Under the pieces are notes generated by a model. The model was not told the DNA's origin, made no database searches, and saw only the letters and a list, made by a program, of their open reading frames with translations. A stretch of 64,000 bases of DNA, from the NCBI GenBank assembly GCA_944321455.1, contig CALULI010000009.1, positions 2,703-66,702 on the forward strand. Direction: 5' to 3'. Below, one piece after another: positions 3,959-25,943 of this stretch (its first letter is position 1; every line of letters starts with the position of its first letter). Origin of the DNA: an uncultured Eggerthellaceae bacterium (GTDB lineage: Bacteria; Actinomycetota; Coriobacteriia; Coriobacteriales; Eggerthellaceae). Position numbers and translations under genes: made by a program.

Positions 3959-3968
3959 GAAGTGATTT

Positions 3969-4001
3969 TTAGGAGCACTGCTTGTGAGGCAGTGCTCCTA
4001 A
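3969..4001 (+). terminator. 13-bp stem hairpin between wbpA and wbpB (terminator or processing/stability element)
   Basis: TTAGGAGCACTGC-N7-GCAGTGCTCCTAA followed by CTTTT. Confidence 0.55.
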
Positions 4002-4113
4002 CTTTTAATATTCTAGTTTGTAATAAGGAATTATTGCTTGAACTAAAATACGAGCAAGAATTAGCTTGAAATATATTGTTGGCATGGTTTCTCGAGGATT
4101 AAGGTGTAAAAGT

Positions 4114-5190: not shown

Positions 5191-5759
5191 TGTGTGAATT
5201 CTTTGTCCATGAAACTGCAGTTATCGATGAAGGCGCTTCTATCGGCAAGAATACAAAAATATGGCATTTTAGTCATATCCAATCAGGGGCGAAAATAGGA
5301 AGTAATTGCAGTTTGGGTCAGAACGTTAATATAGCCAATAATGTCATGATAGGCGAGGGATGCAAAATCCAAAATAACGTTTCTGTCTATGAAGGTGTCG
5401 AGCTTGAAGATTACGTCTTTTGCGGACCTTCTTGTGTATTTACAAACGATCTAACGCCACGTGCTAAGTATCCTAAGGGTAGTGCTAACTATGTTCGTAC
5501 TGTAGTTCAGTACGGCGCATCTATTGGAGCGAATGCTACTATTGTTTGTGGAAACACAGTTGGCAAATGGGCAATGATTGGTTCGGGAGCTGTAGTCACC
5601 TCTGATGTTCCTAACCACGCTTTAATGATTGGAATTCCAGCACGCCAACACGGTTGGGTTTGCGAGTGTGGAATGGTTCTTGATGATTCGCTCAGCTGCC
5701 CTAGCTGTAATAGAATGTATGAGATAGCTGATGGAGAGCTAAGAGAGGTTGAGGGCTGA
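5190..5759 (+). CDS. wbpD: Hexapeptide-repeat N-acetyltransferase (WbpD/WlbB-like)
   Basis: [37 protein letters not shown]-terminal CECG..CPSC. Confidence 0.85.
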
Positions 5760-6892
5760 TGGAGTTCAGGGATCTTCATACACAATATGATGTTTTGCAT
5801 AAAGAGATAGACCAAGCTATAAAATGTGTGTTGGCTTCAGGCCAATTTATTGGTGGAGATCCTGTTAAAACATTTGAAAAGGAGCTTGCTGACTATTTAG
5901 GCGTTAAGCACTGCATTACTTGCGCCAATGGAACGGACGCGTTGAAACTCGCCTTAATGGCATGGGGGATAGGGCCTGGAGACGCGGTTCTTGTTCCGGA
6001 TTTTACTTTCTTTTCTAGTGGAGAGGTAGTCTCTTCAGTCGGTGCAGTTCCTGTTTTTATTGATGTTTTAGAGGACTCTTTTAATTTAGATCCAAAAAAG
6101 ATCGAATCTGGGGTAAAAGCGGCTTTGCAGGAGGGTTTCAAGCCTCGCGCAGTCGTTGCAGTCGACTTATTTGGCCGTCCTGCTGATTATTCTGCCATTA
6201 AGCAGGAATGCAAGCGCCTAGGTCTGCTTCTTCTCGAAGATGGTGCCCAAGGATTTGGCGGATCTATTGGAGAGAAGAAAGCATGTTCGTTTGGAGATAT
6301 ATCAACGACAAGTTTTTTTCCTGCTAAGCCTTTGGGCTGCTACGGCGACGGTGGAGCAATATTTACCGATAACGAAGAGTGGGCGAAGCTCATTAGGAGT
6401 TATGCGATTCATGGCAAAGGGTCTATGAAGTATGACAATATCCGCATTGGTATGAATAGCAGACTGGATACTATTCAGGCCTCAATTCTAAGAGTAAAGT
6501 TTAGAGCTTTTAGGGATTTCGAGCTCCAAGCGGTTAATGAACGAGCAGAGCACTACTCTGAACTACTTTGCGATACATCTTTGGTTTTACCAAAGATTCC
6601 TGATGGTGTTATCAGCTCGTGGGCGCAGTATACCGTAATAGCCTCTAATGAGGAGGAAAGAAATAGACTTCAGCATGAATTGAAAAATGTCGGGGTACCA
6701 ACTATGGTTTATTATCCGAAGCCAATGCACGAGCAAAAAGCATTTGAGGATAGCAGTATTACGCTTTGTGATAAATCTTCGACAACTTCAAGATTGTGTC
6801 GGACGGTTTTAAGCCTACCAATGGGTCCATATCTTAAGAATGATGATATAGAGCGTATCGGCAAAGAACTCATGCGCCTTCTTCATGGCTAG
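5759..6892 (+). CDS. wbpE: DegT-family aminotransferase (WbpE/WlbC-like)
   Basis: MEFRDL, CANGTDAL, EDGAQGFG, SFFPAKPLGCYGDGGA, GMNSRLDTIQA. Confidence 0.85.
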   Translation: MEFRDLHTQYDVLHKEIDQAIKCVLASGQFIGGDPVKTFEKELADYLGVKHCITCANGTDALKLALMAWGIGPGDAVLVPDFTFFSSGEVVSSVGAVPVFIDVLEDSFNLDPKKIESGVKAALQEGFKPRAVVAVDLFGRPADYSAIKQECKRLGLLLLEDGAQGFGGSIGEKKACSFGDISTTSFFPAKPLGCYGDGGAIFTDNEEWAKLIRSYAIHGKGSMKYDNIRIGMNSRLDTIQASILRVKFRAFRDFELQAVNERAEHYSELLCDTSLVLPKIPDGVISSWAQYTVIASNEEERNRLQHELKNVGVPTMVYYPKPMHEQKAFEDSSITLCDKSSTTSRLCRTVLSLPMGPYLKNDDIERIGKELMRLLHG

Positions 6893-6909
6893 GTGAAACG
6901 ATAAAACTC

Positions 6910-7986
6910 ATGATTGTTCAGATTCTACCGGAGAGTGATTTATCCCGCGGTTTTATAGATTTTATGCAAGAAAATTTTAAGGATGATTTTTGCTACATTC
7001 TTATCAATGGTGAGAATTCGAATGCTGATTTGATTCAGGAGAATGTAATTATACTTGAGAACAGAATTTCTCTTGCACTTAATCAAAAAGCAAGGAATTG
7101 GTTGAGCTCGTCTAGCGCGATCATATTAAATTGGGTTGATGGAGCCATACTTACTCTTTTATTTCCATTTAGGAAAAAGATTGCAGCGATGTTTTGGGGC
7201 GGTGATTTGACTTTCTTGCTAAAAGGAGCCGAATCAAAAAACCCTATCAAAAAAATGGTCAGCACCTGTATAAAAAAGCAGGTAGAAAGCCTGCCTTGTA
7301 CTATTACCCTCTCTAGAGGCGAATATGATTTACTTAGATCTGCCTGTAGTTTAAAGGGCAAGTGGTTCTTGGGTTCTTTTATGTCAAATTCAATGAAAGA
7401 GATTCAAAAAAAATGCTCCACGAGAGATGCCTACGATGAGACGCGCATTCTGCTTGGCAATAGTGCGACTTCATCAAATAGACACCAGCAAATGTTTGAC
7501 ATGTTGGAAAGATTTAATAAAGAGAATGCAGTCTTCTATGCTCCATTAACATATGGCGATATGGAATACCGAGACAAAATTATAAAACTAGGGAAAGATA
7601 AATTTGGCGATAAATTTGTACCACTTGTAAAGCATATGGACTCATCGGACTATTTAGACTTTTTAAGTACGATTACAGTTGGTGTTTTTAACCATAATAG
7701 ACAACAAGGCATAGGAAACATAAGTAGACTTCTTGCGTTCGGGGCAAAAGTTTATTTATCAAAGGATGGGCCATTGCTTGAGGAGAATTTGAAGGATGGT
7801 TTTAAGGTGTTTCCTACCGAGGATATACCCAATCAAAGCTTTGAGGAACTTATTTTCATGAAGGATAAAGATCGTGAAACGAATACGCAAAAAGCAAGTT
7901 TTGAAGCTTATTCGCAAGAAGCCAAAGAGCTTTGGTCAAAGATAATAGCCTATCTTAATGTGGTAAAGCCATATGAGCGATCTTAA
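6910..7986 (+). CDS. GT56 family glycosyltransferase (WecF/RffT-like 4-amino-6-deoxyhexose transferase)
   Basis: ILLGNSATSSNRH, PLTYGD, YLDFLS...VFNHNRQQGIGNISRLLAFGAKVYL, typical of WecF-like proteins. Confidence 0.75.
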   Translation: MIVQILPESDLSRGFIDFMQENFKDDFCYILINGENSNADLIQENVIILENRISLALNQKARNWLSSSSAIILNWVDGAILTLLFPFRKKIAAMFWGGDLTFLLKGAESKNPIKKMVSTCIKKQVESLPCTITLSRGEYDLLRSACSLKGKWFLGSFMSNSMKEIQKKCSTRDAYDETRILLGNSATSSNRHQQMFDMLERFNKENAVFYAPLTYGDMEYRDKIIKLGKDKFGDKFVPLVKHMDSSDYLDFLSTITVGVFNHNRQQGIGNISRLLAFGAKVYLSKDGPLLEENLKDGFKVFPTEDIPNQSFEELIFMKDKDRETNTQKASFEAYSQEAKELWSKIIAYLNVVKPYERS

Positions 7987-9418
7987 GACAAAAACAATTT
8001 CATCATTATTTTGGAAATTGATGGAGCGTGGTGGCAATGCCGTTGTCTCTCTTATTGTTCAAGTTGTCTTGGCGCGATTGCTGCTGCCTGAAGATTTTGG
8101 CATGCTCGCAATCATTATTGTCTTTGTGAATATTGGAGCAGTTTTTGTCCAGTCTGGTTTAAATTCAGCCTTAGTACAATCGCCTACAATTTCCGAAGAG
8201 GATTATTCAACTGTATTCTGGTTCTGCTTTTTTATAGCATTGTTGTTGTATGTTGGTATTTTTTTTATAGCTCCATTTGTTGCTGATTTCTACAATAGTG
8301 AAGGCCTAGTGTGGCCTCTAAGAGCCATTGCGATATTGCTGATCATAAATGCTTTAAATGCAGTACAGATCGCCAAAGTAACTCGCGACCTAGAATTAAA
8401 GAAAACGTTCTATGCTACGATTGCCTCCGTGGTTGTCTCGGGGCTTTGCGGTATTGCTGTTGCCCTTTGTGGTTATGGCGTCTGGGCTCTTGTTGTGCAA
8501 CAATTAATTTATCAACTGGTTAATTGTGCTGTTCTTGGATTACAGATTCGCTGGCGGCCTTCTTTTGTATTTTCGTTTAAACGTGCAAGAGATCTTTTTA
8601 AATTTGGGTGGAAGATTCTAGTTTCAGGACTCCTCAATACGCTCTATCAGAGCTTCTCTAGTCTTATTATTGGTAAACAATTTTCTCAATATAGCCTGGG
8701 CCTCGTATCTCAGGGGGAAAAATATCCTCAAGCTATAGGCAACATGTTAGATGGTGCGATTCAGCCAGTTATGTTTTCAGCTGTTTCTCGTGTCCAGAAT
8801 AGCCTTGATGATGTTAAGGGATTGACTAGACGTGCTTTAAAGACCTCGGCGTTTCTAGTAATACCAATTATGCTCACTTTTTCGGTAGTAGCAGAGCCGT
8901 TCACTAGAGTTTTCCTGGGCGATCAATGGTTGGCTGCTGTTCCATTTTTCCAGCTCTACTGTCTCATTTATGCTTTATATCCTTTGCAAACATCAAATTT
9001 GCAGGCTATTAATGGGATTGGGAGAAGTGACATCTATTTAAAATTAGAAATAGTAAAAAAAGTATACGGAGTAATCATTGTTCTATTTTGTGCCCTTGTA
9101 TTGCAAAATATTTATGCAGTTGTATGCGGATTACTGTTATCAAACGTAATATCTGTTTTTGTAAATTCCCTGCCGACAAAAAGATTGATAGGTTATAGCC
9201 TTCTGGAACAGATCAAAGATATTTTTCCTTCAATTTTACTATCAGTAGTTGCTTGTGCGGCGAGTAGTCTAGCCCATTTAGCAAGTTTAAGCCCTATTAT
9301 TATGCTAATAGTTCAAGTTATCGTAGCTGTTGTTTTGTATGTACTGCTTGCGGCAATATTTAAGGTCGAAGAGTTCACGTATTTGTTTACTACTCTTAAA
9401 GAACGCTTTTTGGCGTAA
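7973..9418 (+). CDS. wzx: Wzx-type polysaccharide flippase (PST family)
   Basis: About 12-14 hydrophobic segments; VLARLLLPEDFGMLAII; overlaps the upstream gene. Confidence 0.9.
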   Translation: MSDLKTKTISSLFWKLMERGGNAVVSLIVQVVLARLLLPEDFGMLAIIIVFVNIGAVFVQSGLNSALVQSPTISEEDYSTVFWFCFFIALLLYVGIFFIAPFVADFYNSEGLVWPLRAIAILLIINALNAVQIAKVTRDLELKKTFYATIASVVVSGLCGIAVALCGYGVWALVVQQLIYQLVNCAVLGLQIRWRPSFVFSFKRARDLFKFGWKILVSGLLNTLYQSFSSLIIGKQFSQYSLGLVSQGEKYPQAIGNMLDGAIQPVMFSAVSRVQNSLDDVKGLTRRALKTSAFLVIPIMLTFSVVAEPFTRVFLGDQWLAAVPFFQLYCLIYALYPLQTSNLQAINGIGRSDIYLKLEIVKKVYGVIIVLFCALVLQNIYAVVCGLLLSNVISVFVNSLPTKRLIGYSLLEQIKDIFPSILLSVVACAASSLAHLASLSPIIMLIVQVIVAVVLYVLLAAIFKVEEFTYLFTTLKERFLA

Positions 9419-9456: not shown

Positions 9457-10590
9457 ATGAAGCCAGTAAAAATAAAGGGTTATTATCTGTGCAACTTCAA
9501 CCCATTTTCTTCAGACCATATTCCTACTGGTGTTGACAAGAAGATCATTAGCCAAATTAAGGCATTTAATGAAGAAAAAATAAATTGTGAGTTTATTTAT
9601 TGTCCTTATGCAAAAACAAAGCTAAGACGTGGCTTGGGGAGTTTGCCTTTAGTGTCAGATGGTGTCGAGTGGCCTAACTTGGAGAAAGTGAAAGGTGCTT
9701 CTTTCTTGTATATTAGGCGTCCCTTATATGCATCAAGAGAATTCAATCGCTTTTTGATCAACTTCAAGGAGGAGAATCGAGATTCTCTAGTGATAATTGA
9801 GCTTCCATCTTTCCCTTACGATAAAGAGTTTTCTGGAAAAGAAATGTATTTTGCATTGCGGAAGGATCGAAAGTATCGAAATAAGTGGAAAGATTCTGTC
9901 GACTATATTGCTGACCTATCTGGGAGCAGTGAGATTTTTAATATAAAAACTCTTCCAATAATTAACGGAATCGATCTTGACTCTACTCGTGTAAGGAAAA
10001 GTTCAAGCAAGAAGACCGGAACGATAAATATTATATTTTCAGCGTTCTTTGGACCTTGGCATGGCTGCGATCTGTTAATAAAGGGTTTAGCTAAGTATTA
10101 CGAGCAGGGAGGAGAGAGGGACATTTTGCTGCATCTAGCAGGAGGCGGCAATATGCTTCAAGAAATAGAAAGTATTATCAGAGAAGAGCATCTTGAAAAG
10201 CATGTAAAAATGTATGGTCCCCTCCAACAGGATCAACTCAATACACTTTTTGATGAATGCGATTTTGCAGTAGGAAGTTTGGGGCTCCATCGTCGAAGCG
10301 CAAATTGTAGAGATTCGTCTTTGAAAACTAGAGAATATTTAGCAAAAGGAATTCCTTTTGTTTATGCTGGCACTGTAGATGTTTTTGAAAAAGATCCTGT
10401 TGATTTTTGTTTACAATTGCCATCTGTGGAGAAGCCAACAAACTTTAATGCAATAGTTGACTTCTACGACAAGCTTTATTCGCGCGAGTCGGAAGACTCT
10501 TTAATTCAAAGAATCAGATCATATGCAGAACAGCACATTTCTATGAAGATGGCGATGGCTTCTGTTATTCATGCTATAAAACATGAATAA
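9457..10590 (+). CDS. Glycosyltransferase, GT4/GT-B fold
   Basis: GVDKKIISQIKAF, WHGCDLLIKG, SSLKTREYLAKGIPFV. Confidence 0.8.
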   Translation: MKPVKIKGYYLCNFNPFSSDHIPTGVDKKIISQIKAFNEEKINCEFIYCPYAKTKLRRGLGSLPLVSDGVEWPNLEKVKGASFLYIRRPLYASREFNRFLINFKEENRDSLVIIELPSFPYDKEFSGKEMYFALRKDRKYRNKWKDSVDYIADLSGSSEIFNIKTLPIINGIDLDSTRVRKSSSKKTGTINIIFSAFFGPWHGCDLLIKGLAKYYEQGGERDILLHLAGGGNMLQEIESIIREEHLEKHVKMYGPLQQDQLNTLFDECDFAVGSLGLHRRSANCRDSSLKTREYLAKGIPFVYAGTVDVFEKDPVDFCLQLPSVEKPTNFNAIVDFYDKLYSRESEDSLIQRIRSYAEQHISMKMAMASVIHAIKHE

Positions 10591-10596
10591 CAGAAA

Positions 10597-11706
10597 TTAT
10601 ATATTTGCATGTAACGAATAAAATTCTGAGAGCCATGAAGCCGTATTTCGTATATCAAATCCACATTCTTCGATAAGGGATGTTTGGTCATTCGGCGCAG
10701 TTAAGCTTCGAGCGTATGCTGCGACTGCTACGTCTGCCCAGTTCTGAGCTGAGCCAATATTGAGATGTGATACACGTGGAGTTATACATGCAAATTTTGG
10801 AACACCCTCCGATACTATGCACTCTAGGCCAGCAGCTTGAGCCTCTATGAAAGCTATACCTAGTCCTTCTGATATAGAAGGAAATAAAAAAACATCTGAA
10901 GCCTGAAGGATAAATGGTATATCAGTACGTGTCCCTAGGAATCTTACGGAGTCCTTCAGATTACTAGAAATCACTTGTTGTCTAATTTTGTCGATATCCT
11001 CTCCTGTGCCAACGAGCAATAGGAGAGCGTTGGGCAGTTGCTCTTTTATCTTTTGGAACACTTCTATAAGAAATGGATGGTTCTTTTGTGCGGTGAAGCG
11101 TCCAATATGAAGAAAAACGGGATTGCCGCCAGTATGCAAAGCACTCTTTGCATTTGCAATTAACGTCGAGTTTCTCTTATATAGAGATGAGTCTATGCCG
11201 TTTTTAACTACGGAAAAATTATTGCCATCTGTAATCATTTTTCCAAACCGGCTGATTCCAGCTTCGAGAGAACATGCCATATAGTAGTCTGCTTTGCCGC
11301 GCACAGATCTAGCGATGGTGTTAAACGCAATGTTGTAGAGTGAGTTGTTCGGCATGGCGTTATGGCTATGAGCAATTGCAAATCGTCCTGCCTGTTTAGC
11401 TATTGGCAAATAAACAGGTGCAGAGCTTCCTATATGTCCATGTACGATACGAATTTCAGGATGCTCTTGAAAAAAGGCAATGCAATTATTTCTATAGGAG
11501 AGATAATTAAACAAATAGAATCTAGGAATAGAAAAAATTCTTCCACCTAGTTGACGAATTTCATCATTATAGTCACATTCATTGTTTACATTTAGCAAAA
11601 AATCAAACTGTATTTTGCTACGGTCAATTTTTCGATAGACATTCATAATAAACGTTTCAGCGCCAGCAATGTTCATTGCTCGGATTACGTGTAATATGCG
11701 AATCAA
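10597..11706 (-). CDS. Glycosyltransferase GT4 (EpsF-like), oriented opposite to its neighbours
   Basis: RILHVIRAMNIAGAETFIMNVYRKIDRSKIQFDF, HIGRFTAQKNH, FPSISEGLGIAFIEAQAAGL. TTG at 11706 follows AAGGTG; the ORF track starts at 11724. Confidence 0.9.
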   Translation of the reverse strand: MIRILHVIRAMNIAGAETFIMNVYRKIDRSKIQFDFLLNVNNECDYNDEIRQLGGRIFSIPRFYLFNYLSYRNNCIAFFQEHPEIRIVHGHIGSSAPVYLPIAKQAGRFAIAHSHNAMPNNSLYNIAFNTIARSVRGKADYYMACSLEAGISRFGKMITDGNNFSVVKNGIDSSLYKRNSTLIANAKSALHTGGNPVFLHIGRFTAQKNHPFLIEVFQKIKEQLPNALLLLVGTGEDIDKIRQQVISSNLKDSVRFLGTRTDIPFILQASDVFLFPSISEGLGIAFIEAQAAGLECIVSEGVPKFACITPRVSHLNIGSAQNWADVAVAAYARSLTAPNDQTSLIEECGFDIRNTASWLSEFYSLHANI

Positions 11707-13933: not shown

Positions 13934-14635
13934 ATGAAAACATTATTGATCATACCTGCTTATAATGAAGAGGATTCAATAGAATCCACCATAAACTCAA
14001 TTATGAATGAGGGGCTTGATGTTGATTATCTGATTGTCAACGATGGTTCTAAAGATAGCACGGCAAAGGTTTGCCGTAAGTTTCATTATCCATTTTTAGA
14101 TCTGTCCACAAACTTAGGTTTAGCGGGCGCCTTCCAAGCTGGAATGAAGTATGCGTATCGGCATGGATACGAATGCGCGATCCAATTTGATGCCGATGGG
14201 CAACATTTACCAGAATATGTTCACATATTAGAAGAGGCAATAAAGAGCAGCGATATAGTTATCGGCTCACGTTTCTTAACACAAAAAAAGCCGATATCTC
14301 CCAGAATGCTCGGTAGTAATCTAATCTCATTAGCTATAAAAATAACAACTGGAAAGAAGTTAAGCGATCCAACATCAGGAATGAGAGCATTTAACAAAAG
14401 AATGATTAAATATCTTGCGCTGGGCTTAAACTTTGGTCCAGAACCTGACACCGTATCTTATCTTATAAAGAGTGCAAATGCTAAGGTAGTTGAAGTTCCT
14501 GTAAAAATGGCAGAAAGAGTTGCTGGGGAAAGCTACCTAAATCCTTGGACCTCTTTTGTTTATATGCTGAGGATGTTTGTCTCGATATTGTTTATGCAAC
14601 TTGTAAGAAAGCGTATGGAGGAAGCAGAGAAATGA
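13934..14635 (+). CDS. GT2 polyprenyl-phosphate glycosyltransferase (DPM1/GacI-like)
   Basis: IIPAYNEE, VNDGSKD, NLGLAGAFQAG, QFDADGQH, VIGSRF, DPTSGMRA. Confidence 0.85.
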   Translation: MKTLLIIPAYNEEDSIESTINSIMNEGLDVDYLIVNDGSKDSTAKVCRKFHYPFLDLSTNLGLAGAFQAGMKYAYRHGYECAIQFDADGQHLPEYVHILEEAIKSSDIVIGSRFLTQKKPISPRMLGSNLISLAIKITTGKKLSDPTSGMRAFNKRMIKYLALGLNFGPEPDTVSYLIKSANAKVVEVPVKMAERVAGESYLNPWTSFVYMLRMFVSILFMQLVRKRMEEAEK

Positions 14636-15006
14636 CAATTGAACTACGTATTGTGCTCATTGGCGTTTCTTTGCTAACGCTGCTATTTATAGCAAAGAAG
14701 GTAAGAAATTCGAAAGTTAAACTAGAGGACTCAATTTTCTGGTTTTGCTTTGCCGTGGTGATCTTACTTATCAGTATCTTTCCAGAGGTTTTTTATGCGT
14801 TGTCTAGCTTTGTTGGAACGGATGCGCCAGTTCATTTCGTTTTCTTATTTTTTATTTTTGTTTTATTAATTCAGATTTTCCAATTAAGTATGAGAGTGTC
14901 CCAGTCGGATACAAAGATTAAAGAGCTAACGCAGCAACTGGCGATTGAAAAATTTGAGCGTTATCGAAACGATCGAAACAAAAATCAGGACAAGCATAAA
15001 GAATAG
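14632..15006 (+). CDS. DUF2304 small membrane protein (GacJ-like partner of the GT2)
   Basis: Three hydrophobic segments, KVRNSKVKLEDSIFW, C-terminal IKELTQQLAI. ATG at 14632 overlaps the upstream stop (ATGA). Confidence 0.8.
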   Translation: MTIELRIVLIGVSLLTLLFIAKKVRNSKVKLEDSIFWFCFAVVILLISIFPEVFYALSSFVGTDAPVHFVFLFFIFVLLIQIFQLSMRVSQSDTKIKELTQQLAIEKFERYRNDRNKNQDKHKE

Positions 15007-15022
15007 ATTTTGAGGAATTATA

Positions 15023-16929
<1,907 letters not shown>

Positions 16930-16988: not shown

Positions 16989-18053
16989 ATGACCGTAAAA
17001 ATATCAGTATTAATACCAATTTATAACGCAGAAAAATTTCTTTTTCAGGCGCTGGAATCTTTGCATCAGCAGATTTGGGAACAGATAGAATTTATCTGCC
17101 TCAACGACGGGTCAACTGACGATTCCCTCGCGATTGTTCAAGGCTTTCTTGAGAAAGATGATCGCTTTAAGCTCATAAATAAAGATAATTCTGGATACGG
17201 GTCTTCCATGAATTTAGGAATTGAAAAAGCCCAGGGAGACTATGTAGCTATTTTTGAGCCCGATGACTATATCGAAGGGCAAATGTATGCAGATCTGTAT
17301 CGCCTTGCTGAGGTGCAGGATTATCCTGATGTAGTTAAATCTGCGTACTGGAGCATTGATGATTCCGCAGGAACAGTCGAGCGCTTCCGTTGCGGTTATT
17401 GGAAGCGTATCAAGCATGAAAAAACAACTTTTATCATAAAAGAAGAACCTTTACTAACGAGATACCATCCGTCAATTTGGTCGGCGATTTATCGTAGAGA
17501 CTTTTTGCAGGAAAACAATATTCACTTTAAAGAAATTCCTGGTGCAGGATGGGTCGACAATCCTTTCATGATGGAAACGCTTTTAAAGGCGCGATCTATT
17601 GCTTATACCGATAATGCTTATTATTGCTATCGTGATGCTCATGAGGGGTCTTCAACAGCAAATATTTCCGATATGCATATGCCCGTTGATCGATGGCTGG
17701 AAATGGCTGAAATTATGCGTAAGAACTCTTCAGCCACTTCAGGCGAGCTTTGGTCTATCCATGCATACAAAGCATTTCTGTATCTTGAATTCGCTAAGCA
17801 AGCTAAGAACTATGATGCGGAAGAGTGGCAGACCCTTGCTGGTCGTGTGCTAGGTACGCTTGATCCAAGTGTTGTAGCAGGCTCCGAATACCTATCAGAT
17901 AAAGAAAAGCATGCGTATGAAGAAATAACTGGGAGAGAGCTGCCAGCTTGGAATAATCGCGCCTATACTTTTATGCTGATGAAAGAGGCTTACTGGAAAG
18001 TTCGCCAGAACGGTATTGGGTTTATGCTTAAGCGTGCTAAACAGCACGCTTAA
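16989..18053 (+). CDS. Glycosyltransferase GT2
   Basis: SVLIPIYNAE, LNDGSTD, NSGYGSSMN, IFEPDD, PGAGWVDNPF. Confidence 0.9.
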   Translation: MTVKISVLIPIYNAEKFLFQALESLHQQIWEQIEFICLNDGSTDDSLAIVQGFLEKDDRFKLINKDNSGYGSSMNLGIEKAQGDYVAIFEPDDYIEGQMYADLYRLAEVQDYPDVVKSAYWSIDDSAGTVERFRCGYWKRIKHEKTTFIIKEEPLLTRYHPSIWSAIYRRDFLQENNIHFKEIPGAGWVDNPFMMETLLKARSIAYTDNAYYCYRDAHEGSSTANISDMHMPVDRWLEMAEIMRKNSSATSGELWSIHAYKAFLYLEFAKQAKNYDAEEWQTLAGRVLGTLDPSVVAGSEYLSDKEKHAYEEITGRELPAWNNRAYTFMLMKEAYWKVRQNGIGFMLKRAKQHA

Positions 18054-18068
18054 GACAAGTTAATTGTT

Positions 18069-19922
18069 TTATTGATTCGACTTTTTCTGAGCGAGTAAAA
18101 GAGCGCGCTCAAGTAGCTGACGGTCGCGATAGGAATATACGGCATCATCGCCAATGAAGATAATTTTTTCGAGCGTCTGCGCCTTGTTCTGAATATAGTG
18201 GATCGCCTTTGAGACGGCATCTAAGCTTCCTGAGTCTTCAAGAATGATGGGTAAACCAAAGCGTCCCGCAAAGGTTCCTAATGTGTATGAATGTTCCGGC
18301 TGCCATGAGGAAGAAATAAGAACGGAATGGCCCATTTCAATGCCGAGCGATTCAAGCTTATTTTCTACGAGCTCGTTGATCATATGATTTGCTTGGTAGG
18401 TATCGGTACCTACCAAGCGCTCGACCTCTAATCCCTTATCTCTCAAAGTGTCAAGGCAAGAGTCTTGAATTTCGGCGCCATTGCCAACAATAAGGATCTT
18501 TTTAAAATTGGCTATAAGAACATTAACGATCTCATCTCGTATGGTCTTAGGGGTCAGACAGTAAAAAAGAGGCGTTTGCGTTTTGTACATATAGGGAGTC
18601 AAGGTTAGGATATCCTCGAAACACTCCTTGTAAGACAATATAGCAACTTCACCCCAATCGTCCTTTTTCTTAGAGGCAAAGTTAAAGACTTCCAAGCTAA
18701 GCAAATCTTTTTCATCTGTGTTTATAACTTTAAGATTTGCTTCAGGGAAATTAGCTACAAAAGAATCCCAAACATTTGGAAAAATTGAATCACTGGTTTT
18801 AACAGCGATAATTTTTGAAGGATTAAGTTCTTTAAGCGCTCGAAGCGTGGCAGCAGGAATCATTTCCTTGCCAATAGTGAAAATCGGTGCATTGTAGGTT
18901 GCCGCAATAATATTTGCTAATAAATTATCGGGCCTTGATTCGCCTGATGTAACAATTATGCAGTCAGAGCTTGCACCGTTCTCAATGCATTTATTTGCTA
19001 ACTTGATGGCGGTTGTATAGCGGCTTTCGCCTGCTATTACATCGATTTGATCGCCGCTAGGGATGACATCCTTGTTGAACATGGTGTCGAGTACAAGTTT
19101 TTCATCTTCGCTGCTTCCCTCGCGGCCGCCAACAATGCGATATGTTTCACAAACATCATGCGCAGCCCCAATCATGCGGACATGGCCTTTTTCAATCCAT
19201 ATAGCCTTATTGCAGAGACGCTCGACCTGATCGGTATTGTGGGAAACGATGAGGACGGTTACCTGATGGTCTTTAATCATGGAGCTAATGCGACGTTCGC
19301 ATTTTTGCTGAAACATGAAATCGCCTACAGAAAGAACCTCGTCAACAATAAGGACATCTGGAATTGTTGCTGTTGCAACTGCAAAGGCGATGCGGGCAAC
19401 CATACCAGAAGAATAGTTCTTGAGAGGCATATCAAGGAATTTCTCGATCTCAGCAAATTCTACAATTTCATCAAAATGAGAGTCAATGAATTCTTTGGTG
19501 TAGCCAAGCAGGGCTCCATTTAGATATACGTTTTCACGTGCCGTTAGATCCATGTCAAAGCCAGCGCCGAGTTCAATCAAAGGCGCAATATTGCCTTTAA
19601 CCTTGCAAGATCCCATGCTTGGGTCAAGAACGCCTGCGATAATTTTCAGTACGGTTGATTTACCTGAGCCATTGGTTCCAAGGATGCCAAACACATCACC
19701 GCGCTTTACCTGAAAGGAAACGTCATCAAGCGCGCGGAATTCTTTAAAGCGCAGTTCGTGACGTGCCAACGCGATAGCATACTCCTTGAGGCTATTGAGC
19801 TGTTCGCTAGCCATGTTGAAGATCATGGTTACGTGATCAACATCAACCATCACTTCAGCGTTAGGGTCATCAACTGTATCCAGTGTAGAACCAAGAAAAG
19901 ATTTATTTACTGCTTCTGGCAT
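18069..19922 (-). CDS. wzt: Wzt/RgpD-type polysaccharide ABC exporter ATPase fused to three CWB2 (cell wall binding repeat 2)-like domains
   Basis: NBD: GTNGSGKST, YSSGM, VLIVDE, VSH. C-terminal half: IAGESRYTTAIKLA..IVTSGESRPDNLLA..APIFT, a second diverged unit, and VERLVGTDTYQAN..GLPIIL..KIIFIGDDAVYS. Confidence 0.85.
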   Translation of the reverse strand: MPEAVNKSFLGSTLDTVDDPNAEVMVDVDHVTMIFNMASEQLNSLKEYAIALARHELRFKEFRALDDVSFQVKRGDVFGILGTNGSGKSTVLKIIAGVLDPSMGSCKVKGNIAPLIELGAGFDMDLTARENVYLNGALLGYTKEFIDSHFDEIVEFAEIEKFLDMPLKNYSSGMVARIAFAVATATIPDVLIVDEVLSVGDFMFQQKCERRISSMIKDHQVTVLIVSHNTDQVERLCNKAIWIEKGHVRMIGAAHDVCETYRIVGGREGSSEDEKLVLDTMFNKDVIPSGDQIDVIAGESRYTTAIKLANKCIENGASSDCIIVTSGESRPDNLLANIIAATYNAPIFTIGKEMIPAATLRALKELNPSKIIAVKTSDSIFPNVWDSFVANFPEANLKVINTDEKDLLSLEVFNFASKKKDDWGEVAILSYKECFEDILTLTPYMYKTQTPLFYCLTPKTIRDEIVNVLIANFKKILIVGNGAEIQDSCLDTLRDKGLEVERLVGTDTYQANHMINELVENKLESLGIEMGHSVLISSSWQPEHSYTLGTFAGRFGLPIILEDSGSLDAVSKAIHYIQNKAQTLEKIIFIGDDAVYSYRDRQLLERALLLAQKKSNQ

Positions 19923-19943: not shown

Positions 19944-20732
19944 TTAAACGTAAAGAATGAATTTCTTCTCAAACTTCTTAAAAACCGCTAGGCCAATCAA
20001 GAAGAAAACCACGCCCAGGCCTAGACAAATAAGATTCTCTTGAATGCCTGGGGTTTGCCCCCAAAGAGCGATTTGCCTGAAGTAGGTGATGAAGTGGTAC
20101 ATCGGGTTGAAATTCATGATGGTTGCCATCCAATCAGGCAAAATGCTTATTGGATAGAAAATAGGCGTAGCGTATGTCCATGCTGTTACAACAACGCTCC
20201 ATAAATGAATGATATCCCTGAAGAATACCGCAAGAGCTGAGAGCAACATGCCAATTCCTGCGCTGAAGAGAACGATATAGATCAACAGCAAGGGAAGGAA
20301 AATAAAGTTGAATGTAGGAACCACCTGGAAAAAGATCATTACAGCAGCAATTGCAATAAGAGAAATGCAGAAATTTACCAGCTGAAAAAGAACCTTTTCA
20401 ATAGGAAAGAGAACTTTCTTAATCTTAATTTTCTTGATAAGAGAAGAAGAATCAAGAATAGAGCGCATTGCGCTAGTCGTTGAATCTCCCATGAGGGAAA
20501 ACAGAGTACTGCCCAAGATCAAATAAAGCGGATAATACTCAATGTCGAACCTGAACATAAAACTAAATACCGCCGTCAAGACGCACATCATTAATAAAGG
20601 GTTAAGCACAGACCAGAGTACGCCCAAAGTACTACGGCGATATTTCAATTTAAAATCTTTAGATATCAAAGATGACAGGATGAATTTATCTCTTTTCCAA
20701 CCTGGTTTGGAGAAGCTTTCCAAAGCAGCCAC
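19944..20732 (-). CDS. wzm: Wzm/RgpC-type ABC-2 polysaccharide exporter permease
   Basis: SKDFKLKYRRSTLGVLWSVLNPLL, YATPIFYP, FNPMYHFI; 6 TM segments. Confidence 0.93.
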   Translation of the reverse strand: MAALESFSKPGWKRDKFILSSLISKDFKLKYRRSTLGVLWSVLNPLLMMCVLTAVFSFMFRFDIEYYPLYLILGSTLFSLMGDSTTSAMRSILDSSSLIKKIKIKKVLFPIEKVLFQLVNFCISLIAIAAVMIFFQVVPTFNFIFLPLLLIYIVLFSAGIGMLLSALAVFFRDIIHLWSVVVTAWTYATPIFYPISILPDWMATIMNFNPMYHFITYFRQIALWGQTPGIQENLICLGLGVVFFLIGLAVFKKFEKKFILYV

Positions 20733-20797: not shown

Positions 20798-22663
20798 TTA
20801 TGAGCGGCGAATGATTGTAATGAGCTTACGAGCAATTTTTCTGCCGAGGCTATCCTTCGGCAGAAGCAAATCTATAAGTCTGTTTTCCCTCTTCTTAAAC
20901 ATCTTTAGCAGTATGAGCTCGTAGCTATTTGAGCGTCGTGCTTTATTCCAGAAAACAGGAGCAAAGACAGGATCAGGGAATAGGTAAGGATAATTCTCGG
21001 CACGGTAGTTAATAATATTGGCCGTGGTGCTGTCTTTCCATTCTTTAAAAGTGCCCTCATTTGCCCATTTCTGTGTTTCTTCAAAGTTGATGCTTTGTGT
21101 TGCATCTGAGAAGTTAAACGCTGATGCATTGAGCTTCTGCAACAAAACGCTTTGAGCAGCCAGATATGAGGCGGGATATTCTTGCGGGAAGCGTTTTGCC
21201 TTAATTTTTGTAATCTGCGGTGTGTCAAACGCAGCAAAGATTTCTTGATATTGCCTTAGGATGTCCTGCAATGCAAAAGACTCCCGCAAAGCAGCAGGAT
21301 CTAAAACTATCACGGACGGGCTAAGCGTTGGTTCTGCAAGAGAATTTTGGCTGCGATAGGTGTTTAATACAGCTTTATTTTTCGGACGATTAAGCTCGCG
21401 TTCCGTAAGCACAGAAAGATTGCAAGTAAGAGGCGTATTTGCGTTTAGGGCAACTTCCACAGGATCGTTATTGAATACGCAGAGACCGTCAACCCATAAG
21501 ATCTTGTGCTGTGCATTTCCTAGCCATGGGAGCAGAAGTGGATACAAGTCGTAAAGCTCTTCCTCTGAGAGATCTAATCCAAGGCTATCCAAATCAATAT
21601 TCTGCCAGGTGGTTTGCTCGATGGCTAAATTTTTAGGAACCGCTGGAAGTAATTGCTTTGTAAAGTTGTAATCAAAGTCATGACGGCACAAAAGATGTAG
21701 GCGATAGGTCTTCTGTGGATCAAGCTGCTCAATAAGGGAGCTGATTCCTACTGCGAGTGCCTCTGGTAGTTTGTCGTAGTAACGCCACACGATATCAAGG
21801 GTGTTGTCGTCGCGGGTAGCTGTATTTTCCGCTTCAAGCGAGAAAAGGGGCTTAGTGTCCTCGAAGAACACCATAGGATATTGAGCAATTTTGTAATTGC
21901 TTGTTCGCCTTAAGTGGTTAATGAAAACGCTATAGAGAATTTCACCTAAATAACCGCACACTCGTTTTTGTGTTGTTGTGCGGTTTTCATAATCGAATTG
22001 TTTATCAAAATCAAAGAGAATGGAAAATTCAAAATCACAAAGCTGGAAGAATAAATCCTTCTTCATGATGTAGCAGTTGTAGCCAAGATACTGACTGCCG
22101 TTTAGGTATGAATCAAGGTCTTGCTTAAATTCAGGTTGGTTTTTTTCTACGATGTTTTCGAGGAGCGCAAAACCTTCTTCGTCAATAAGGCCGTAGCCCA
22201 TCATGTGTTCTTTGATGGTCTTTTTTGGTCCATCTTCTGTTGGGGTGCCTTTAACATTCCAGTAGGGTGGGGTAATAATGTCGTTACCTGCAACGCAAGA
22301 GCGAATGAGGCCCTCGTCGTCTAACCGATATTCTTTGAGCGTAAACTGATTAAGACTTTTGACCTCAATTTGTTTATGATCGTTTGCGTGGTGGCGCTTG
22401 CCGTCAAAACAGAAGTAGCGGCGATAATGACAAAGGCCATAGTAGTCCGCATTAAGATTCTTCCAAGCCCAATATTGAGCGGTTAATTCGCAGAAGGTGA
22501 AGTTTCTCTCTGAAATATTATCGCCCGTGTTGTCGGGTGTAGTGTTTTTTAAAGGAAGCTTTGCTTGTTCGGCGCCAACATGAACAGGAAGAAAAATATT
22601 GGACTGCGGCGCAACAATTCCTTTGTGACACGACATAAGTATTTTGATGTTGGGTTCAGACAC
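20798..22663 (-). CDS. DUF4422 (GT111-like galactofuranosyltransferase) plus degenerate GT8-like domain; WbbM-like architecture
   Basis: N-terminal PVHVGA, DNTGDNISERNFTFCELTAQYWAWKN, GLCHYRRYF. C-terminal LAVGISSLIEQ..YRLHLL..LLPWL..KILWVDGL follows the GT8 pattern but lacks the DxD. Confidence 0.75.
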   Translation of the reverse strand: MSEPNIKILMSCHKGIVAPQSNIFLPVHVGAEQAKLPLKNTTPDNTGDNISERNFTFCELTAQYWAWKNLNADYYGLCHYRRYFCFDGKRHHANDHKQIEVKSLNQFTLKEYRLDDEGLIRSCVAGNDIITPPYWNVKGTPTEDGPKKTIKEHMMGYGLIDEEGFALLENIVEKNQPEFKQDLDSYLNGSQYLGYNCYIMKKDLFFQLCDFEFSILFDFDKQFDYENRTTTQKRVCGYLGEILYSVFINHLRRTSNYKIAQYPMVFFEDTKPLFSLEAENTATRDDNTLDIVWRYYDKLPEALAVGISSLIEQLDPQKTYRLHLLCRHDFDYNFTKQLLPAVPKNLAIEQTTWQNIDLDSLGLDLSEEELYDLYPLLLPWLGNAQHKILWVDGLCVFNNDPVEVALNANTPLTCNLSVLTERELNRPKNKAVLNTYRSQNSLAEPTLSPSVIVLDPAALRESFALQDILRQYQEIFAAFDTPQITKIKAKRFPQEYPASYLAAQSVLLQKLNASAFNFSDATQSINFEETQKWANEGTFKEWKDSTTANIINYRAENYPYLFPDPVFAPVFWNKARRSNSYELILLKMFKKRENRLIDLLLPKDSLGRKIARKLITIIRRS

Positions 22664-22679
22664 AAATGCTCCTTATGCA

Positions 22680-23690
22680 TTAATTGGTGGTTTCAAACAC
22701 GAAACGATCTTTATGGTTGAGGTAATAGTCAATCATCTCTTTAGTTTGAGGGCCATAGCCTAAATGGCCCACCACAACGTTGTCGCTTACAACCATTGCT
22801 TTGCCGGAAAAACACGCGTAGTTGCAAATGTGCTCTTCGTCATCTCCTAAACCATATTCGCTGCCCACAAACGTAAGCGGAAAATGACCGAATTCTTCCC
22901 ATGCGTCGCGCGTAAACAGAATAGCGCCAATGCTATAGCGAACAGGGCAAATAGTGTAGCTTAAGGGTTCTTCACTGAATTTTGCAGTAAGAGCATCAAC
23001 ATTGCGCAAGACAGGTTGTGTTTCTCCCCACATGTATTTTGCTGCTTTGGGGTTTTCAAGGATCTGCTTGTTGTGATGAAGCCCATCAGTGATTTTCATA
23101 TCAGTAAGATTTGTGCTTCTGAAATCCTCTATTAAGCCACATTTTTCCAGAAGGCGAATGTGACCATAGCAACTCACGTTAATAAGAGGCGAAACAAAGG
23201 CGGGAACATAGAAACTATCGTTTTGCACCTTTTGGTAGGTTTCGTAGAGCGTTTCAAAAAAGCCCTGGGTAAGGAACATGTCTTCATCAAGCTTGTATAT
23301 CCATTTTGCTGAAGGATGAAGTTCTATTGCACGATTTTGGATGAGCGACAAATGGTTCTTTTTAGTTGCAAGGTAAGACCAATTGTGTTGTTCAGCAATA
23401 TCCATCAAGGCCTCATTTTTAAGGCCACTTGTCATGATGCATACATCTACATCATCAGGGACAATTTGCGCTAAACGTCCAAAGATGTTATCCCACAAGG
23501 GTTCTTTGTAACCAGCCAATATAATGCAAAGCTTTTCATTGTTGTTGCTGCGATTGATGAAGGTGTGTTTAGAGGCAAGAAGATCTTCGGTAGAAACTTT
23601 AGTATTGCGCAAATTTCTACGTGTTTCTAGAACAGCGCGTCCTAGCTTTGTGCTGTTAATAATGGAATAAAGACTTTCTTTTGTTGACAT
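22680..23690 (-). CDS. Putative GT-A fold glycosyltransferase
   Basis: WIYKLDEDMF (DxD), CIILAGYK, GLGDDEEHIC, VVGHLGYGPQ; lies in the wzm/wzt operon. Confidence 0.6.
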   Translation of the reverse strand: MSTKESLYSIINSTKLGRAVLETRRNLRNTKVSTEDLLASKHTFINRSNNNEKLCIILAGYKEPLWDNIFGRLAQIVPDDVDVCIMTSGLKNEALMDIAEQHNWSYLATKKNHLSLIQNRAIELHPSAKWIYKLDEDMFLTQGFFETLYETYQKVQNDSFYVPAFVSPLINVSCYGHIRLLEKCGLIEDFRSTNLTDMKITDGLHHNKQILENPKAAKYMWGETQPVLRNVDALTAKFSEEPLSYTICPVRYSIGAILFTRDAWEEFGHFPLTFVGSEYGLGDDEEHICNYACFSGKAMVVSDNVVVGHLGYGPQTKEMIDYYLNHKDRFVFETTN

Positions 23691-23873: not shown

Positions 23874-25943
23874 ATGTGGACTCTTTTTGCGGTTACCGTA
23901 TTGGCTGAAATTGCAATCTTGTATCTGCCTGGATTTTTAATCTTAAAAGCATTACGGCTAAATGGATTAACGAGCTTGGTACTAGCTCCCATTGTTGCAA
24001 TAGCTGTTTATGTAACATTGGGCATTGTTTTTGATAAAACAGGCATTTTTGCTTCGTGGTCGACCATGTTCTTTCCGTTGCTTGTTGTGGGCTTAGTGAT
24101 TTTCCTTGTCTCTTTGCTTCTGAGAAAGAAAGGTGAACAAAAAACCAGCAGAAAAGAACAGAGCGTAAATACCACATGGCCTTTCGTTATTTTGTATCTT
24201 GTATTTGGTTGTTTAGTTGCAGGGTATTACTTTGTGTTACCTCTTAACGGGGCTGGGTCCTTTGGGCAAGGGCCCGATAATGCTCCCCACCTCAGTTTTA
24301 TCCAAGCATTTTTGGACGCAGGCAATTATTCTTCTTTGAATTCCTCGTATTATCACGGGATAGACAATCCTTATCAAGATCCGAGTGGGAACAATGGCGC
24401 TGGTGGTTTTTATCCTACAGGTTGGCATTCAGTTGCTGCTTTGGCGGGGTCTTTGACGGGTGCTAATGCGGCAGTTTCAGCAAATGCTTCCTTGTTTGTT
24501 TTTCTAGCGATAGTTTTCCCCATCAATGTGTTCTATTTGATTCAGGTTCTTGCAAAAGATAACAAAGTTTTAATCGCTTTAGGATCTTTAGTGTGCTTAG
24601 GCTTTGGGGCATTTCCGTGGGGATTGATAACATTTGGCCCACTTTATCCAAATTTTGTCGCCTTCGTTTTTGTTCCCTTGTTGGTGGGAATGTTTGCCTT
24701 GATTTTCACTTCAGGAATTCGCGTTGGTATAAAGATTATTCTTTCTCTTTTATTTATTCTGGGTCTTTTTGACCTAATCTTTCTCCAATCGAATGCGGCG
24801 TTCACTGTGGGAGTTTTCTTGATCCCATTCTGTATTGGGTTAATCTGGAGGGCTCTTTCTAATTCAAAAAGCACAATGCTTTCAAAGCGGAGTTTCAAGC
24901 TTTTCTCTTGCGCCGTCTTTTTGATTGTCTGTTATTTTGTCTGGAATTTTGCATATGGACTACCCATTATGAGCGGTGTAGTTAGTTATCCATGGCCGCC
25001 ATATGGGTCTTTACGTCAAGAAATAGTTAATATTTTGCTCTTGTCTTATCGCGATTCTGCTGCTCAACCAATTTTGGGATTACTGGTGCTTTTCGGCATA
25101 GGCTATTTATTGCACAAAAAGCAAAATAGATGGCTCATTGGAACTTATGTGCTTACTTGTTTAATGTGTATTATAGCCGCCACGGGTACTGATGATTTTA
25201 GGTCTTTTTGGATTGGTTTTTGGTATACGGATTCCTACCGCATTGCTGCAATGGCAGCAATAGCAGCAATTCCGTTAGCCGTGTACGGTGTGTATGTTCT
25301 CTATAAACTTGTTATGCGTATATGGGATCAAATTACTGATTGGGCTTCTCTTAAGCGTTTCTCTCTGAAGAGCAAGTCAATCGTTTTTTCTATTGCGTTA
25401 GTTGGCGTCCTGTTCTATCCGAGTTTTACTATTTTTGGCGTAGGTAATATTACGACTGCACTGGGCGAGTTCGAAACAAACTGGTTCAACACCAACAACA
25501 ATATTGGTAACTGCGTTTTAGATCACGACGAACAAGAGTTTTTAACCGATGTTAAATCTATTGTGGGGGACGATTTGGTTATCAATAAACCTGACGATGG
25601 CAGCGTGTTTGCATACGGCGGGGAAGGCATTGATGTCTTTTACAAAAGAACGGGCATTGAGGCATACGAGACTGACTCTGTGGAAAGCCAATTGTTTAGA
25701 GATTCATTAGTTGAATATTCTACAAATAAAGAAGTACAGGATGCTGTTGAGAAAACTGGCGCGAAGTATCTTTTGCTGTTAGACCAAAACGTGGATGACG
25801 AGTCGCAAGAGCGTTACTGGTTTGATCATTATTATGAAAGTTTGTGGACGGGCATGGATGCCGTTAACGACAGCACACCTGGCTTTAAGGTTGTTTTAGC
25901 TGAAGGCGACATGAGGCTTTATGAAATTGAGCCCGTATCGTAA
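23874..25943 (+). CDS. Large polytopic membrane protein, DUF6541-like (putative GT-C transferase)
   Basis: Many TM segments, luminal loop GPDNAPHLSFIQAFLDAGNYSSL, FYPTGWHSVAAL, WYTDSYRIAA, soluble C-terminal domain. Confidence 0.65.
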   Translation: MWTLFAVTVLAEIAILYLPGFLILKALRLNGLTSLVLAPIVAIAVYVTLGIVFDKTGIFASWSTMFFPLLVVGLVIFLVSLLLRKKGEQKTSRKEQSVNTTWPFVILYLVFGCLVAGYYFVLPLNGAGSFGQGPDNAPHLSFIQAFLDAGNYSSLNSSYYHGIDNPYQDPSGNNGAGGFYPTGWHSVAALAGSLTGANAAVSANASLFVFLAIVFPINVFYLIQVLAKDNKVLIALGSLVCLGFGAFPWGLITFGPLYPNFVAFVFVPLLVGMFALIFTSGIRVGIKIILSLLFILGLFDLIFLQSNAAFTVGVFLIPFCIGLIWRALSNSKSTMLSKRSFKLFSCAVFLIVCYFVWNFAYGLPIMSGVVSYPWPPYGSLRQEIVNILLLSYRDSAAQPILGLLVLFGIGYLLHKKQNRWLIGTYVLTCLMCIIAATGTDDFRSFWIGFWYTDSYRIAAMAAIAAIPLAVYGVYVLYKLVMRIWDQITDWASLKRFSLKSKSIVFSIALVGVLFYPSFTIFGVGNITTALGEFETNWFNTNNNIGNCVLDHDEQEFLTDVKSIVGDDLVINKPDDGSVFAYGGEGIDVFYKRTGIEAYETDSVESQLFRDSLVEYSTNKEVQDAVEKTGAKYLLLLDQNVDDESQERYWFDHYYESLWTGMDAVNDSTPGFKVVLAEGDMRLYEIEPVS

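Follow-up and report, generated by a model that had tools for sequence, protein, structure and literature searches.

Our analysis concerns a 64,000-nucleotide stretch of DNA (the window) from an uncultured Eggerthellaceae bacterium (GenBank assembly GCA_944321455.1, contig CALULI010000009.1), and in particular a gene on its minus strand, at 18069..19922, whose open frame encodes a 617-amino acid fusion protein (P0001) with the Pfam pair ABC_tran and CW_binding_2. The protein joins an ATPase domain of the Wzt/TagH class, found in exporters of wall and surface glycans, to a C-terminal region that is a genuine triad of CWB2 domains (residues 292–617, ~325 amino acids) located in the cytoplasm. 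Our results further favor a model, which we consider probable, in which the triad is the cytoplasmic cargo-recognition module of the exporter, analogous but not homologous to the Wzt_C module of characterized Wzt proteins.

A CWB2 triad behind the ATPase domain

Profile searches, structure prediction and fold comparison were each applied to the C-terminal region. On the whole fusion protein, CW_binding_2 (PF04122) scores 48.6 bits against a Pfam gathering cut-off of 24.9, and when the C-terminal 352 amino acids are scanned alone the match resolves into three stretches (51.7 bits, E = 1.3e-13). Neither unit 2 nor unit 3 gives a Pfam match when scanned singly, and unit 2 is counted only in the scan of the whole C-terminus. 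An AlphaFold2 model of residues 262–617 contains three beta-alpha units and is very confident (predicted local distance difference test, pLDDT, 93.4; predicted template modeling score, pTM, 0.90). In a Foldseek comparison of this model with the PDB, the top 11 matches are all CWB2 triads of Clostridioides difficile (Cwp6, SlpA, Cwp8), with E-values from 3e-18 to 3e-11, template modeling (TM) scores of 0.65–0.75 and sequence identities of 14–19%. The best of them is Cwp6 (5j72; E = 3e-18, TM 0.75, root-mean-square deviation 3.1 Å over 328 columns), and the next fold in the list follows at E = 1.5e-4 and TM 0.19. Finally, related genomes encode secreted CWB2 triads that a profile built from fusion C-termini matches at 1e-34 to 1e-52 (profile positions ~30–335 of 350), and the whole module is therefore homologous to them.

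The three units are not identical. Unit 1 (residues 292–394; 18741..19049, minus strand) has GESRY at residue 298, PIFT at 346 and its best Pfam stretch at 296–359. Unit 2 (residues 395–497; 18432..18740, minus strand) is diverged, with PLFY at 451 and the string KILIVG, and its fold is assigned from the model and Foldseek. Unit 3 (residues 498–617; 18072..18431, minus strand) has PIIL at 558, a nearly invariant D..LD motif and KIIFIG. The three tetrapeptides represent a PILL-type motif (P-[ILV]-[ILV]-[ILV]) kept once per unit, in a looser form than the C. difficile consensus (PMC4973711); in CWB2 structures this motif serves trimerization, that is, assembly of the trefoil (PMC5842191). We considered whether the region might be a disguised Wzt_C module, but this is ruled out: PF14524 does not match the fusion protein even at E ≤ 1, in a Pfam scan able to detect it in other Wzt proteins (P0076, P0083), and the alpha/beta fold matches CWB2 triads only.

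Because the fusion protein has no signal peptide or transmembrane segment and its N-terminus is a cytoplasmic ATPase, the triad is cytoplasmic. The C-terminal part of TagH in Bacillus subtilis is extracellular, beyond a transmembrane helix. A hidden helix of this kind is ruled out here, together with an extracellular C-terminus, since past residue 255 the Kyte-Doolittle 19-residue mean peaks at 1.34.

The ATPase domain itself is intact. A short N-terminal extension (residues 1–25; 19848..19922, minus strand) bears the motif MPExVNTSxL, which is common to the fusion family (consensus of alignment A2 and N-termini of homologues), and precedes a nucleotide-binding domain (NBD; residues 26–262; 19137..19847, minus strand) supported by Pfam, NCBIfam, the nearest solved chains and invariant motifs. 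Within it, ABC_tran matches residues 65–196 (E = 3e-19), and the Walker A (GTNGSGKST, 82–90), signature (YSSGM, 170–174), Walker B (LIVDE, 191–195) and H-loop (SH, 227–228) motifs are all invariant in alignment A2. The top NCBIfam models are TagH and galactan Wzt, which span residues 26–262 only and fall short of their curated equivalog cut-offs (199.4 against 538, 187.4 against 400 and 180.4 against 320 bits). The closest solved chains, at E-values of 1e-45 to 1e-52, are TarH (6jbh), Aquifex aeolicus Wzt (6amx/7k2t), mycobacterial RfbE (9qfx) and TagH (7dd0). We thus assign the domain, from its sequence, to the Wzt/TagH class and not as an equivalog of any named exporter. The linker to the triad (residues 263–291; 19050..19136, minus strand) contains a conserved GGxxGSxExE, in which G4, G5 and G8 of alignment A1 are invariant, and one helix (271–281) that is seen in both the C-terminal and the full-length AlphaFold2 models. 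The latter (pLDDT 89.1, pTM 0.81) suggests, through its pTM, a fixed and defined orientation of the triad relative to the NBD.

An earlier note, made from the letters of this DNA, had described this architecture, and what it observed holds in all particulars. Its intact N-terminal Wzt NBD is borne out by the ABC_tran match and the Wzt/TagH-type nearest relatives, and every string that it quoted (IAGESRYTTA, APIFT, PLFY, KILIVG, ERLVGTDTY, LPIIL and KIIFIG) is present in the translation. Its three CWB2 units agree with the three Pfam stretches, the AlphaFold2 model and Foldseek. A scan for PF04122 against PF14524, as it had proposed, places CW_binding_2 above its cut-off with Wzt_C absent at E ≤ 1, and the three-lobed disc that it had expected is modeled as a trefoil at the pLDDT given above. 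Its argument that a C-terminus lacking a signal peptide or transmembrane segment after the NBD would be cytoplasmic agrees with the hydropathy profile.

Distribution and divergence of the fusion

The architecture recurs within one family. A word-indexed search returned 10 further clusters with the same Pfam pair at 51–75% identity, and an exhaustive search of 1.84 billion representatives returned ~55 full-length clusters. The named genomes that carry the fusion all belong to Eggerthellaceae (Gordonibacter, Enteroscipio, Paraeggerthella, Eggerthella sinensis, Senegalimassilia and Slackia). With a fusion-type match defined as one to profile positions 1–347 inside a frame of ~600–680 amino acids, a sample of 151 Eggerthellaceae genomes contains at least 50, from 25 genera, with such a match. 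In a 401-genome sample of the class, the fusion is found in none of the ~356 genomes of other families, which encode many secreted CWB2 proteins. The earlier note had suggested searching Coriobacteriia for ABC_tran together with CW_binding_2, and had named an assembly chimera among the outcomes that would count against it. The pair is found repeatedly and, in the class sample, only in Eggerthellaceae. A chimera can be dismissed, since wzm lies directly upstream of the fusion and the same architecture recurs in many independent assemblies, including those of type-strain isolates and single-contig or closed genomes.

Two contigs binned under other names, L004 (Oscillibacter sp.) and L005 (Prevotella sp.), carry an Eggerthellaceae-type wzm and Wzt-CWB2 gene, with Wzm proteins 64–74% identical; these are probably mis-binned Eggerthellaceae DNA. 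Within the genus of the window, one genome (G446) encodes two Wzt-CWB2 paralogues with different triads (C7:53986-54987 and C12:34167-35210), and five other genomes have no such fusion. Two sets of candidates were rejected. Matches of 770–920 amino acids in two stretches, found in the representative search and taken as possible distant CWB2 fusions, are in fact tandem NBDs or Wzt_C proteins, and a 617-amino acid open reading frame of a CWB2-rich genome (G091) codes for a surface protein that has a signal peptide and is secreted.

The two halves of the fusion have diverged at very different rates. Across 18 fusions, mean identity is 82% for the NBD (minimum 69%) and 26% for the triad (minimum 13%), and a comparison restricted to the window's own genus gives 77.6% for the NBD and 27.9% for the triad. 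For one close pair, whose synonymous divergence (dS) is 0.40, the ratio of nonsynonymous to synonymous change (omega) was calculated separately for the two halves; the NBD has a value of 0.005 and the triad one of 0.055. Taken together, the low omega and the low identity indicate that selection maintains the triad while species diverge, and sequence comparison thus places the triad under purifying selection yet makes it strongly different between species. The serotype-specific C-terminal domains of Wzt diverge similarly (PMC3482155 and references therein). In a tree of 21 fusion triads and 35 surface triads, one branch, supported at 100%, separates the two kinds, in keeping with a single fusion that is old and has been retained. 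We also considered recent capture of a neighboring surface triad, which is not supported: in the tree, no local fusion is sister to the surface triads beside it, and the fusion triads, 21 in number, all lie on one side of that branch.

The earlier note had also proposed that the exported glycan might serve the organism's CWB2 surface proteins as their docking polymer. This part does not hold for this organism. In the source genome (1.55 Mb, 99.7% complete), the fusion open reading frame is the only match to PF04122, to the fusion profile and to a profile built on 35 surface triads of Eggerthellaceae, and no SLH protein was found either. With no second CWB2 protein in the genome, the polymer cannot dock CWB2 surface proteins of the organism itself. 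A hand count across the family gives ~7 genomes with both the fusion and surface CWB2 proteins, 43 with the fusion only, ~25 with surface proteins only and ~76 with neither, a tally in which the positive association between the two that we had considered is absent; CWB2-rich genomes are mostly without the fusion. The secreted CWB2 proteins of relatives carry signal peptides. In the four genomes with both that were examined (G114, G145, G071 and G101), the surface CWB2 genes found lie 1.3 to ~21 kb from the fusion, and this proximity argues that, where both are present, a functional link between them exists.

Cargo recognition and its alternatives

The gene for the permease partner, wzm, lies 21 bases upstream of the fusion (19944..20732, minus strand) and encodes a 262-amino acid ABC-2 permease (Pfam ABC2_membrane, E = 4e-19) whose best NCBIfam match is galactan Wzm. 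It is the sole Wzm-type permease of the source genome; among 21 related loci, an orthologue (51–75% identical) was detected in 19, and in each of these it immediately precedes the fusion. In the model that we favor, Wzm and the Wzt fusion would together make up the one exporter of the Wzm/Wzt type in the cell. Its substrate would be a lipid-linked wall polysaccharide, assembled at the cytoplasmic face by the neighboring glycosyltransferases, including a WbbM-like putative polymerase. One CWB2 trefoil, suspended in the cytoplasm beneath the ATPase domain of each Wzt subunit, would bind the finished polymer at its terminal cap or at a repeat epitope and hold it at the transporter, such that only correct, complete cargo would be admitted to the channel. 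The beta-sandwich module in the Wzt of E. coli O9a and of Aquifex acts along these lines. We infer that the trefoil binds glycan, that this binding gates export and that the glycan possibly contains galactofuranose.

Several lines of comparative evidence point in this direction. The triad follows the NBD at the position that Wzt_C occupies in characterized Wzt proteins, where the module recognizes the terminated glycan (PMC3482155, PMC11231755), and CWB2 triads are known to bind a wall polymer, PSII, in a manner that requires all three repeats (PMC4973711). That an anchor fold had been taken over as the exporter's substrate-recognition module was already the suggestion of the earlier note, and it gains support from this Wzt_C-like position, from divergence of the kind seen in specificity modules under purifying selection, and from a parallel case involving SLH domains. 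Further points in favor of cargo recognition are the confidently predicted trefoil with a PILL-type motif in every repeat, the changing set of glycosyltransferase genes beside a constant wzm, the closeness of fusion and surface CWB2 genes in the four examined genomes that have both, and the fixed arrangement of NBD and triad that the full-length model suggests.

This parallel comes from the nearest relatives of the NBD that lack a CWB2 triad (66–71% identical), which bear SLH domains instead. Five proteins of this kind (P0072, P0062, P0069, P0065 and P0066), together with the one encoded at L065 described next, are 66–72% identical to the window protein in the NBD and have three SLH domains directly after it and no transmembrane segment, with a score of 110 bits for the three domains of P0072. 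In a genome of a sister family (G197; L065 9002-11217), wzm is followed by a gene for an NBD with three SLH domains (9862-11217), in which hydropathy reaches a maximum of 0.87; a secreted SLH protein with leucine-rich repeats is encoded ~5 kb away (L065 2482-5088), and most of the remaining Wzt proteins of that family consist of the NBD only. SLH trimers bind the terminal pyruvylated N-acetylmannosamine of their polymer via Trp13, Gly29 and Arg43 (PMC8942822), and the matching Trp, Gly and Arg are apparently kept, as read from the sequence, in all three SLH repeats of P0072. The case for polymer reading by the appended module is strongest here: within one exporter clade, two wall-polymer anchors of unrelated fold occupy the same attachment point. 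Separately, two other close relatives of the NBD carry an Acyl_transf_3 membrane domain (P0086, 625 amino acids) and a C-terminus with a weak ChW repeat match (P0060, 447 amino acids; E = 0.003, below cut-off).

Nonetheless, several observations weigh against a role in cargo recognition. Pfam and NCBIfam recognize no chain terminator in the cluster, whether a kinase or a methyltransferase with a coiled coil. The Klebsiella D-galactan I system, which is built on WbbM, has a transporter without a binding module (PMC11231755). The usual ligand context of the fold is missing from most fusion genomes, which in ~43 of ~50 cases encode no CWB2 protein besides the fusion. The strong acidity of the fusion triads (median isoelectric point 4.7, net charge −17) makes them a poor fit to an anionic, teichoic-acid-like ligand, and the canonical GxxRY motif is left in only one repeat of the window protein, with a mean of 0.6 per fusion triad and 1.2 per surface triad.

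The last two observations would be compatible with a changed binding partner, and so with the triad acting as a protein-docking or assembly platform that holds the polymerase, other glycosyltransferases or another partner at the transporter, or stabilizes the Wzt dimer, and binds no glycan. There is precedent for such contacts in the C. difficile S-layer, where protein-protein interactions of CWB2 triads contribute both to the lattice and to the SLPH/SLPL interface (PMC8881574), and a WbbM-like gene in the window operon recalls the WbbM-based system of Klebsiella O2a, in which synthesis and export are obligatorily coupled (PMC11231755). However, docking leaves unexplained why close relatives have, as the corresponding module, an SLH triad with its glycan-contact residues apparently retained (PMC8942822). 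The triad falls to 26% identity while Wzm, a conserved partner, stays at 60–75%, and the neighboring glycosyltransferases differ between loci. On balance, we regard this alternative as unlikely.

The ABC ATPases MetN, ModC and MalK carry C-terminal regulatory domains, and the triad could likewise be an allosteric domain. It would tune the ATPase, as in some ABC importers, in response to a small molecule of the cytoplasm, for instance a nucleotide sugar or an intermediate on the lipid carrier. The CWB2 unit is a toprim-like alpha/beta structure (PMC5842191), a type of fold that often binds phosphorylated small molecules, and a weak DRTGG match covers residues 462–517 (E = 7e-4, below cut-off). 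Yet a sensor of a common metabolite would be expected to be conserved, unlike a triad that is 26% identical between species; Pfam shows no nucleotide-binding motif in the triad, and the SLH parallel favors recognition of a polymer. We judge metabolite sensing to be improbable, more so than docking. More improbable by far is an account in which the triad has no function and is left over from an old fusion, or in which the fusion is an artefact of assembly or annotation. Very fast divergence of the triad and the failure of units 2 and 3 to be detected singly would fit such an account, but it conflicts with the omega of 0.055 in the close pair, with the preservation of frame and length across 25 genera (at least 50 genomes, closed ones included), and with a confident fold (pLDDT 93) that has one PILL-type motif per repeat. 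The single fully supported branch likewise fits one old fusion that has been retained.

If cargo recognition is indeed the function of the triad, a broader scenario can be put forward, although only tentatively. Glycan exporters of Coriobacteriia may have captured triple anchors from surface proteins at least twice, CWB2 in Eggerthellaceae and SLH in the sister family, such that exporter and anchored proteins would read the same epitope and only finished, anchor-competent polymer would be exported. In the lineage of the window, the surface proteins would since have been lost, and the reader would have kept diverging together with the polymer.

The glycan cluster and known systems

The minus-strand operon that ends with wzm and the fusion begins with a gene for a 336-amino acid protein without a Pfam or NCBIfam match (22680..23690), followed by one for a 621-amino acid WbbM-like putative polymerase (20798..22663). 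The latter has an N-terminal DUF4422 domain (Pfam E = 5e-59) and a second domain, and matches K. pneumoniae WbbM (6u4b) over residues 5–327 (E = 1e-33). WbbM is a bifunctional D-galactan I polymerase, and the C-terminal half of the window protein has no family match. Orthologues of the 336-amino acid protein (65–70% identical) lie beside the WbbM-like gene in two related loci (L002 and L006). UDP-galactopyranose mutase (Glf) is encoded outside the window cluster, on genome contig C7 (11409-12029); given the WbbM-like gene and Glf elsewhere in the genome, a polymer containing galactofuranose is plausible.

Glycosyltransferases of families GT2 and GT4 flank the operon, and across the 21 related loci the set of glycosyltransferases varies from locus to locus while wzm is constant. 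Convergent with the fusion gene is a GT2 glycosyltransferase gene (16989..18053, plus strand; Pfam Glycos_transf_2, E = 8e-27) with relatives in 9 of the 21 loci. Beyond it lie rmlA and rmlB of the dTDP-sugar pathway (15023..16929, plus strand; NTP_transferase, E = 2.5e-77, and GDP_Man_Dehyd/Epimerase, E = 6.5e-77), which recur in many fusion loci, and then a GT2 gene like those for polyprenyl-phosphate sugar synthases of the PpgS/GtrB type (13934..14635, plus strand; Pfam Glycos_transf_2; NCBIfam PpgS, E = 3.5e-23, below cut-off). On the other side of the operon, a 689-amino acid DUF6541 membrane protein (23874..25943, plus strand; Pfam E = 4e-159) is a candidate extracytoplasmic glycosyltransferase, a role that we infer, and its gene adjoins the fusion in 7 of the 21 loci. 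The PpgS/GtrB-like gene and a small overlapping open reading frame (together 13934-15006, plus strand) resemble, with the DUF6541 gene, a three-component system for extracytoplasmic decoration of glycans. A separate pathway of the Wzx type occupies 2627-9418 (plus strand), with genes for a UDP-sugar dehydrogenase, a GFO/MocA oxidoreductase, a hexapeptide acyltransferase, a DegT aminotransferase, a GT56-like transferase and a Polysacc_synt_3 flippase; the dehydrogenase, oxidoreductase, acyltransferase and aminotransferase resemble a route to 2,3-diacetamido sugars.

What is new here is that a Wzt carries an appended module of a borrowed fold, different from Wzt_C and so far known only as an external anchor of surface proteins; we think a cargo role of this module probable. 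The literature that we searched contains no published description of Wzt-CWB2 or Wzt-SLH proteins, and did not take in the census of binding modules in Wzt by Mann, Kimber and Whitfield (Glycobiology, 2019). CWB2 and SLH domains are taken to mark extracellular proteins anchored to the wall, and secretome predictors rely on both; for annotation, a match to PF04122 or PF00395 alone is no proof of a surface location. If our model is correct, CWB2, with SLH beside it, would join the known cargo-recognition modules of ABC glycan exporters as a third fold. Cargo checking by exporters would then extend from Gram-negative O-antigens to Gram-positive Actinomycetota of the gut, whose wall glycans are almost unstudied, and small, soluble cytoplasmic triads would offer a direct handle on the ligand epitope of CWB2, a question still open for PSII anchoring in C. 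difficile (PMC8881574).

The closest functional counterparts would be the Wzt proteins that bear Wzt_C, as in E. coli O9a, K. pneumoniae O12 and O4 and the A. aeolicus WzmWzt transporter (7k2t/8dku). Both are Wzm/Wzt exporters for lipid-linked polysaccharide, an assignment that for the window is made by sequence, and they share the same class of NBD (E ~1e-51 for A. aeolicus Wzt), an extra cytoplasmic module directly C-terminal to it and greater variability of that module than of the NBD between loci. They differ in the module itself, which in the window is an alpha/beta CWB2 trefoil of ~325 amino acids with putative glycan binding and in the known systems a beta-sandwich of ~140 amino acids, and in the terminator enzyme, none being recognized in the window cluster. 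The Wzt-SLH proteins of the sister Coriobacteriia family (L065 9862-11217 and P0072) share the NBD clade, the wzm-wzt operon, the attachment point and a triple anchor without a transmembrane segment, but their fold, a trimer of three-helix bundles, is unrelated.

The triads of C. difficile SlpA, Cwp2, Cwp6 and Cwp8 likewise consist of three non-identical tandem CWB2 units that form a trefoil with a PILL-type motif in each unit, and in both cases the triad is genetically linked to genes for wall-polymer synthesis, as in the AP/slpA loci (PMC4973711, PMC5842191). In contrast to these surface proteins, the window triad is intracellular and fused to an ATPase, with no signal peptide or transmembrane segment, and PSII is apparently moved by a flippase of the MviN/MurJ type and not by Wzm/Wzt (PMC4973711). 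TagGH and TarGH (6jbh, 7dd0, 9cfl), Gram-positive wall-polymer exporters with an ABC-2 permease partner, provide the best NCBIfam and PDB matches of the window NBD, although it scores well under the TagH equivalog cut-offs (199 against 538 and 180 against 320 bits). TarH and the solved TagH chains consist of the NBD only (260–280 amino acids), whereas the window ATPase carries a triad, and the window cluster contains sugar glycosyltransferases, rml genes and a WbbM-like gene but no teichoic-acid genes. Finally, the D-galactan I system of K. pneumoniae O2a also places a WbbM-type protein beside Wzm/Wzt, with Glf present in the window genome; in Klebsiella, export is coupled to synthesis and the transporter lacks a binding module (PMC11231755), whereas the Wzt of the window carries a CWB2 triad.

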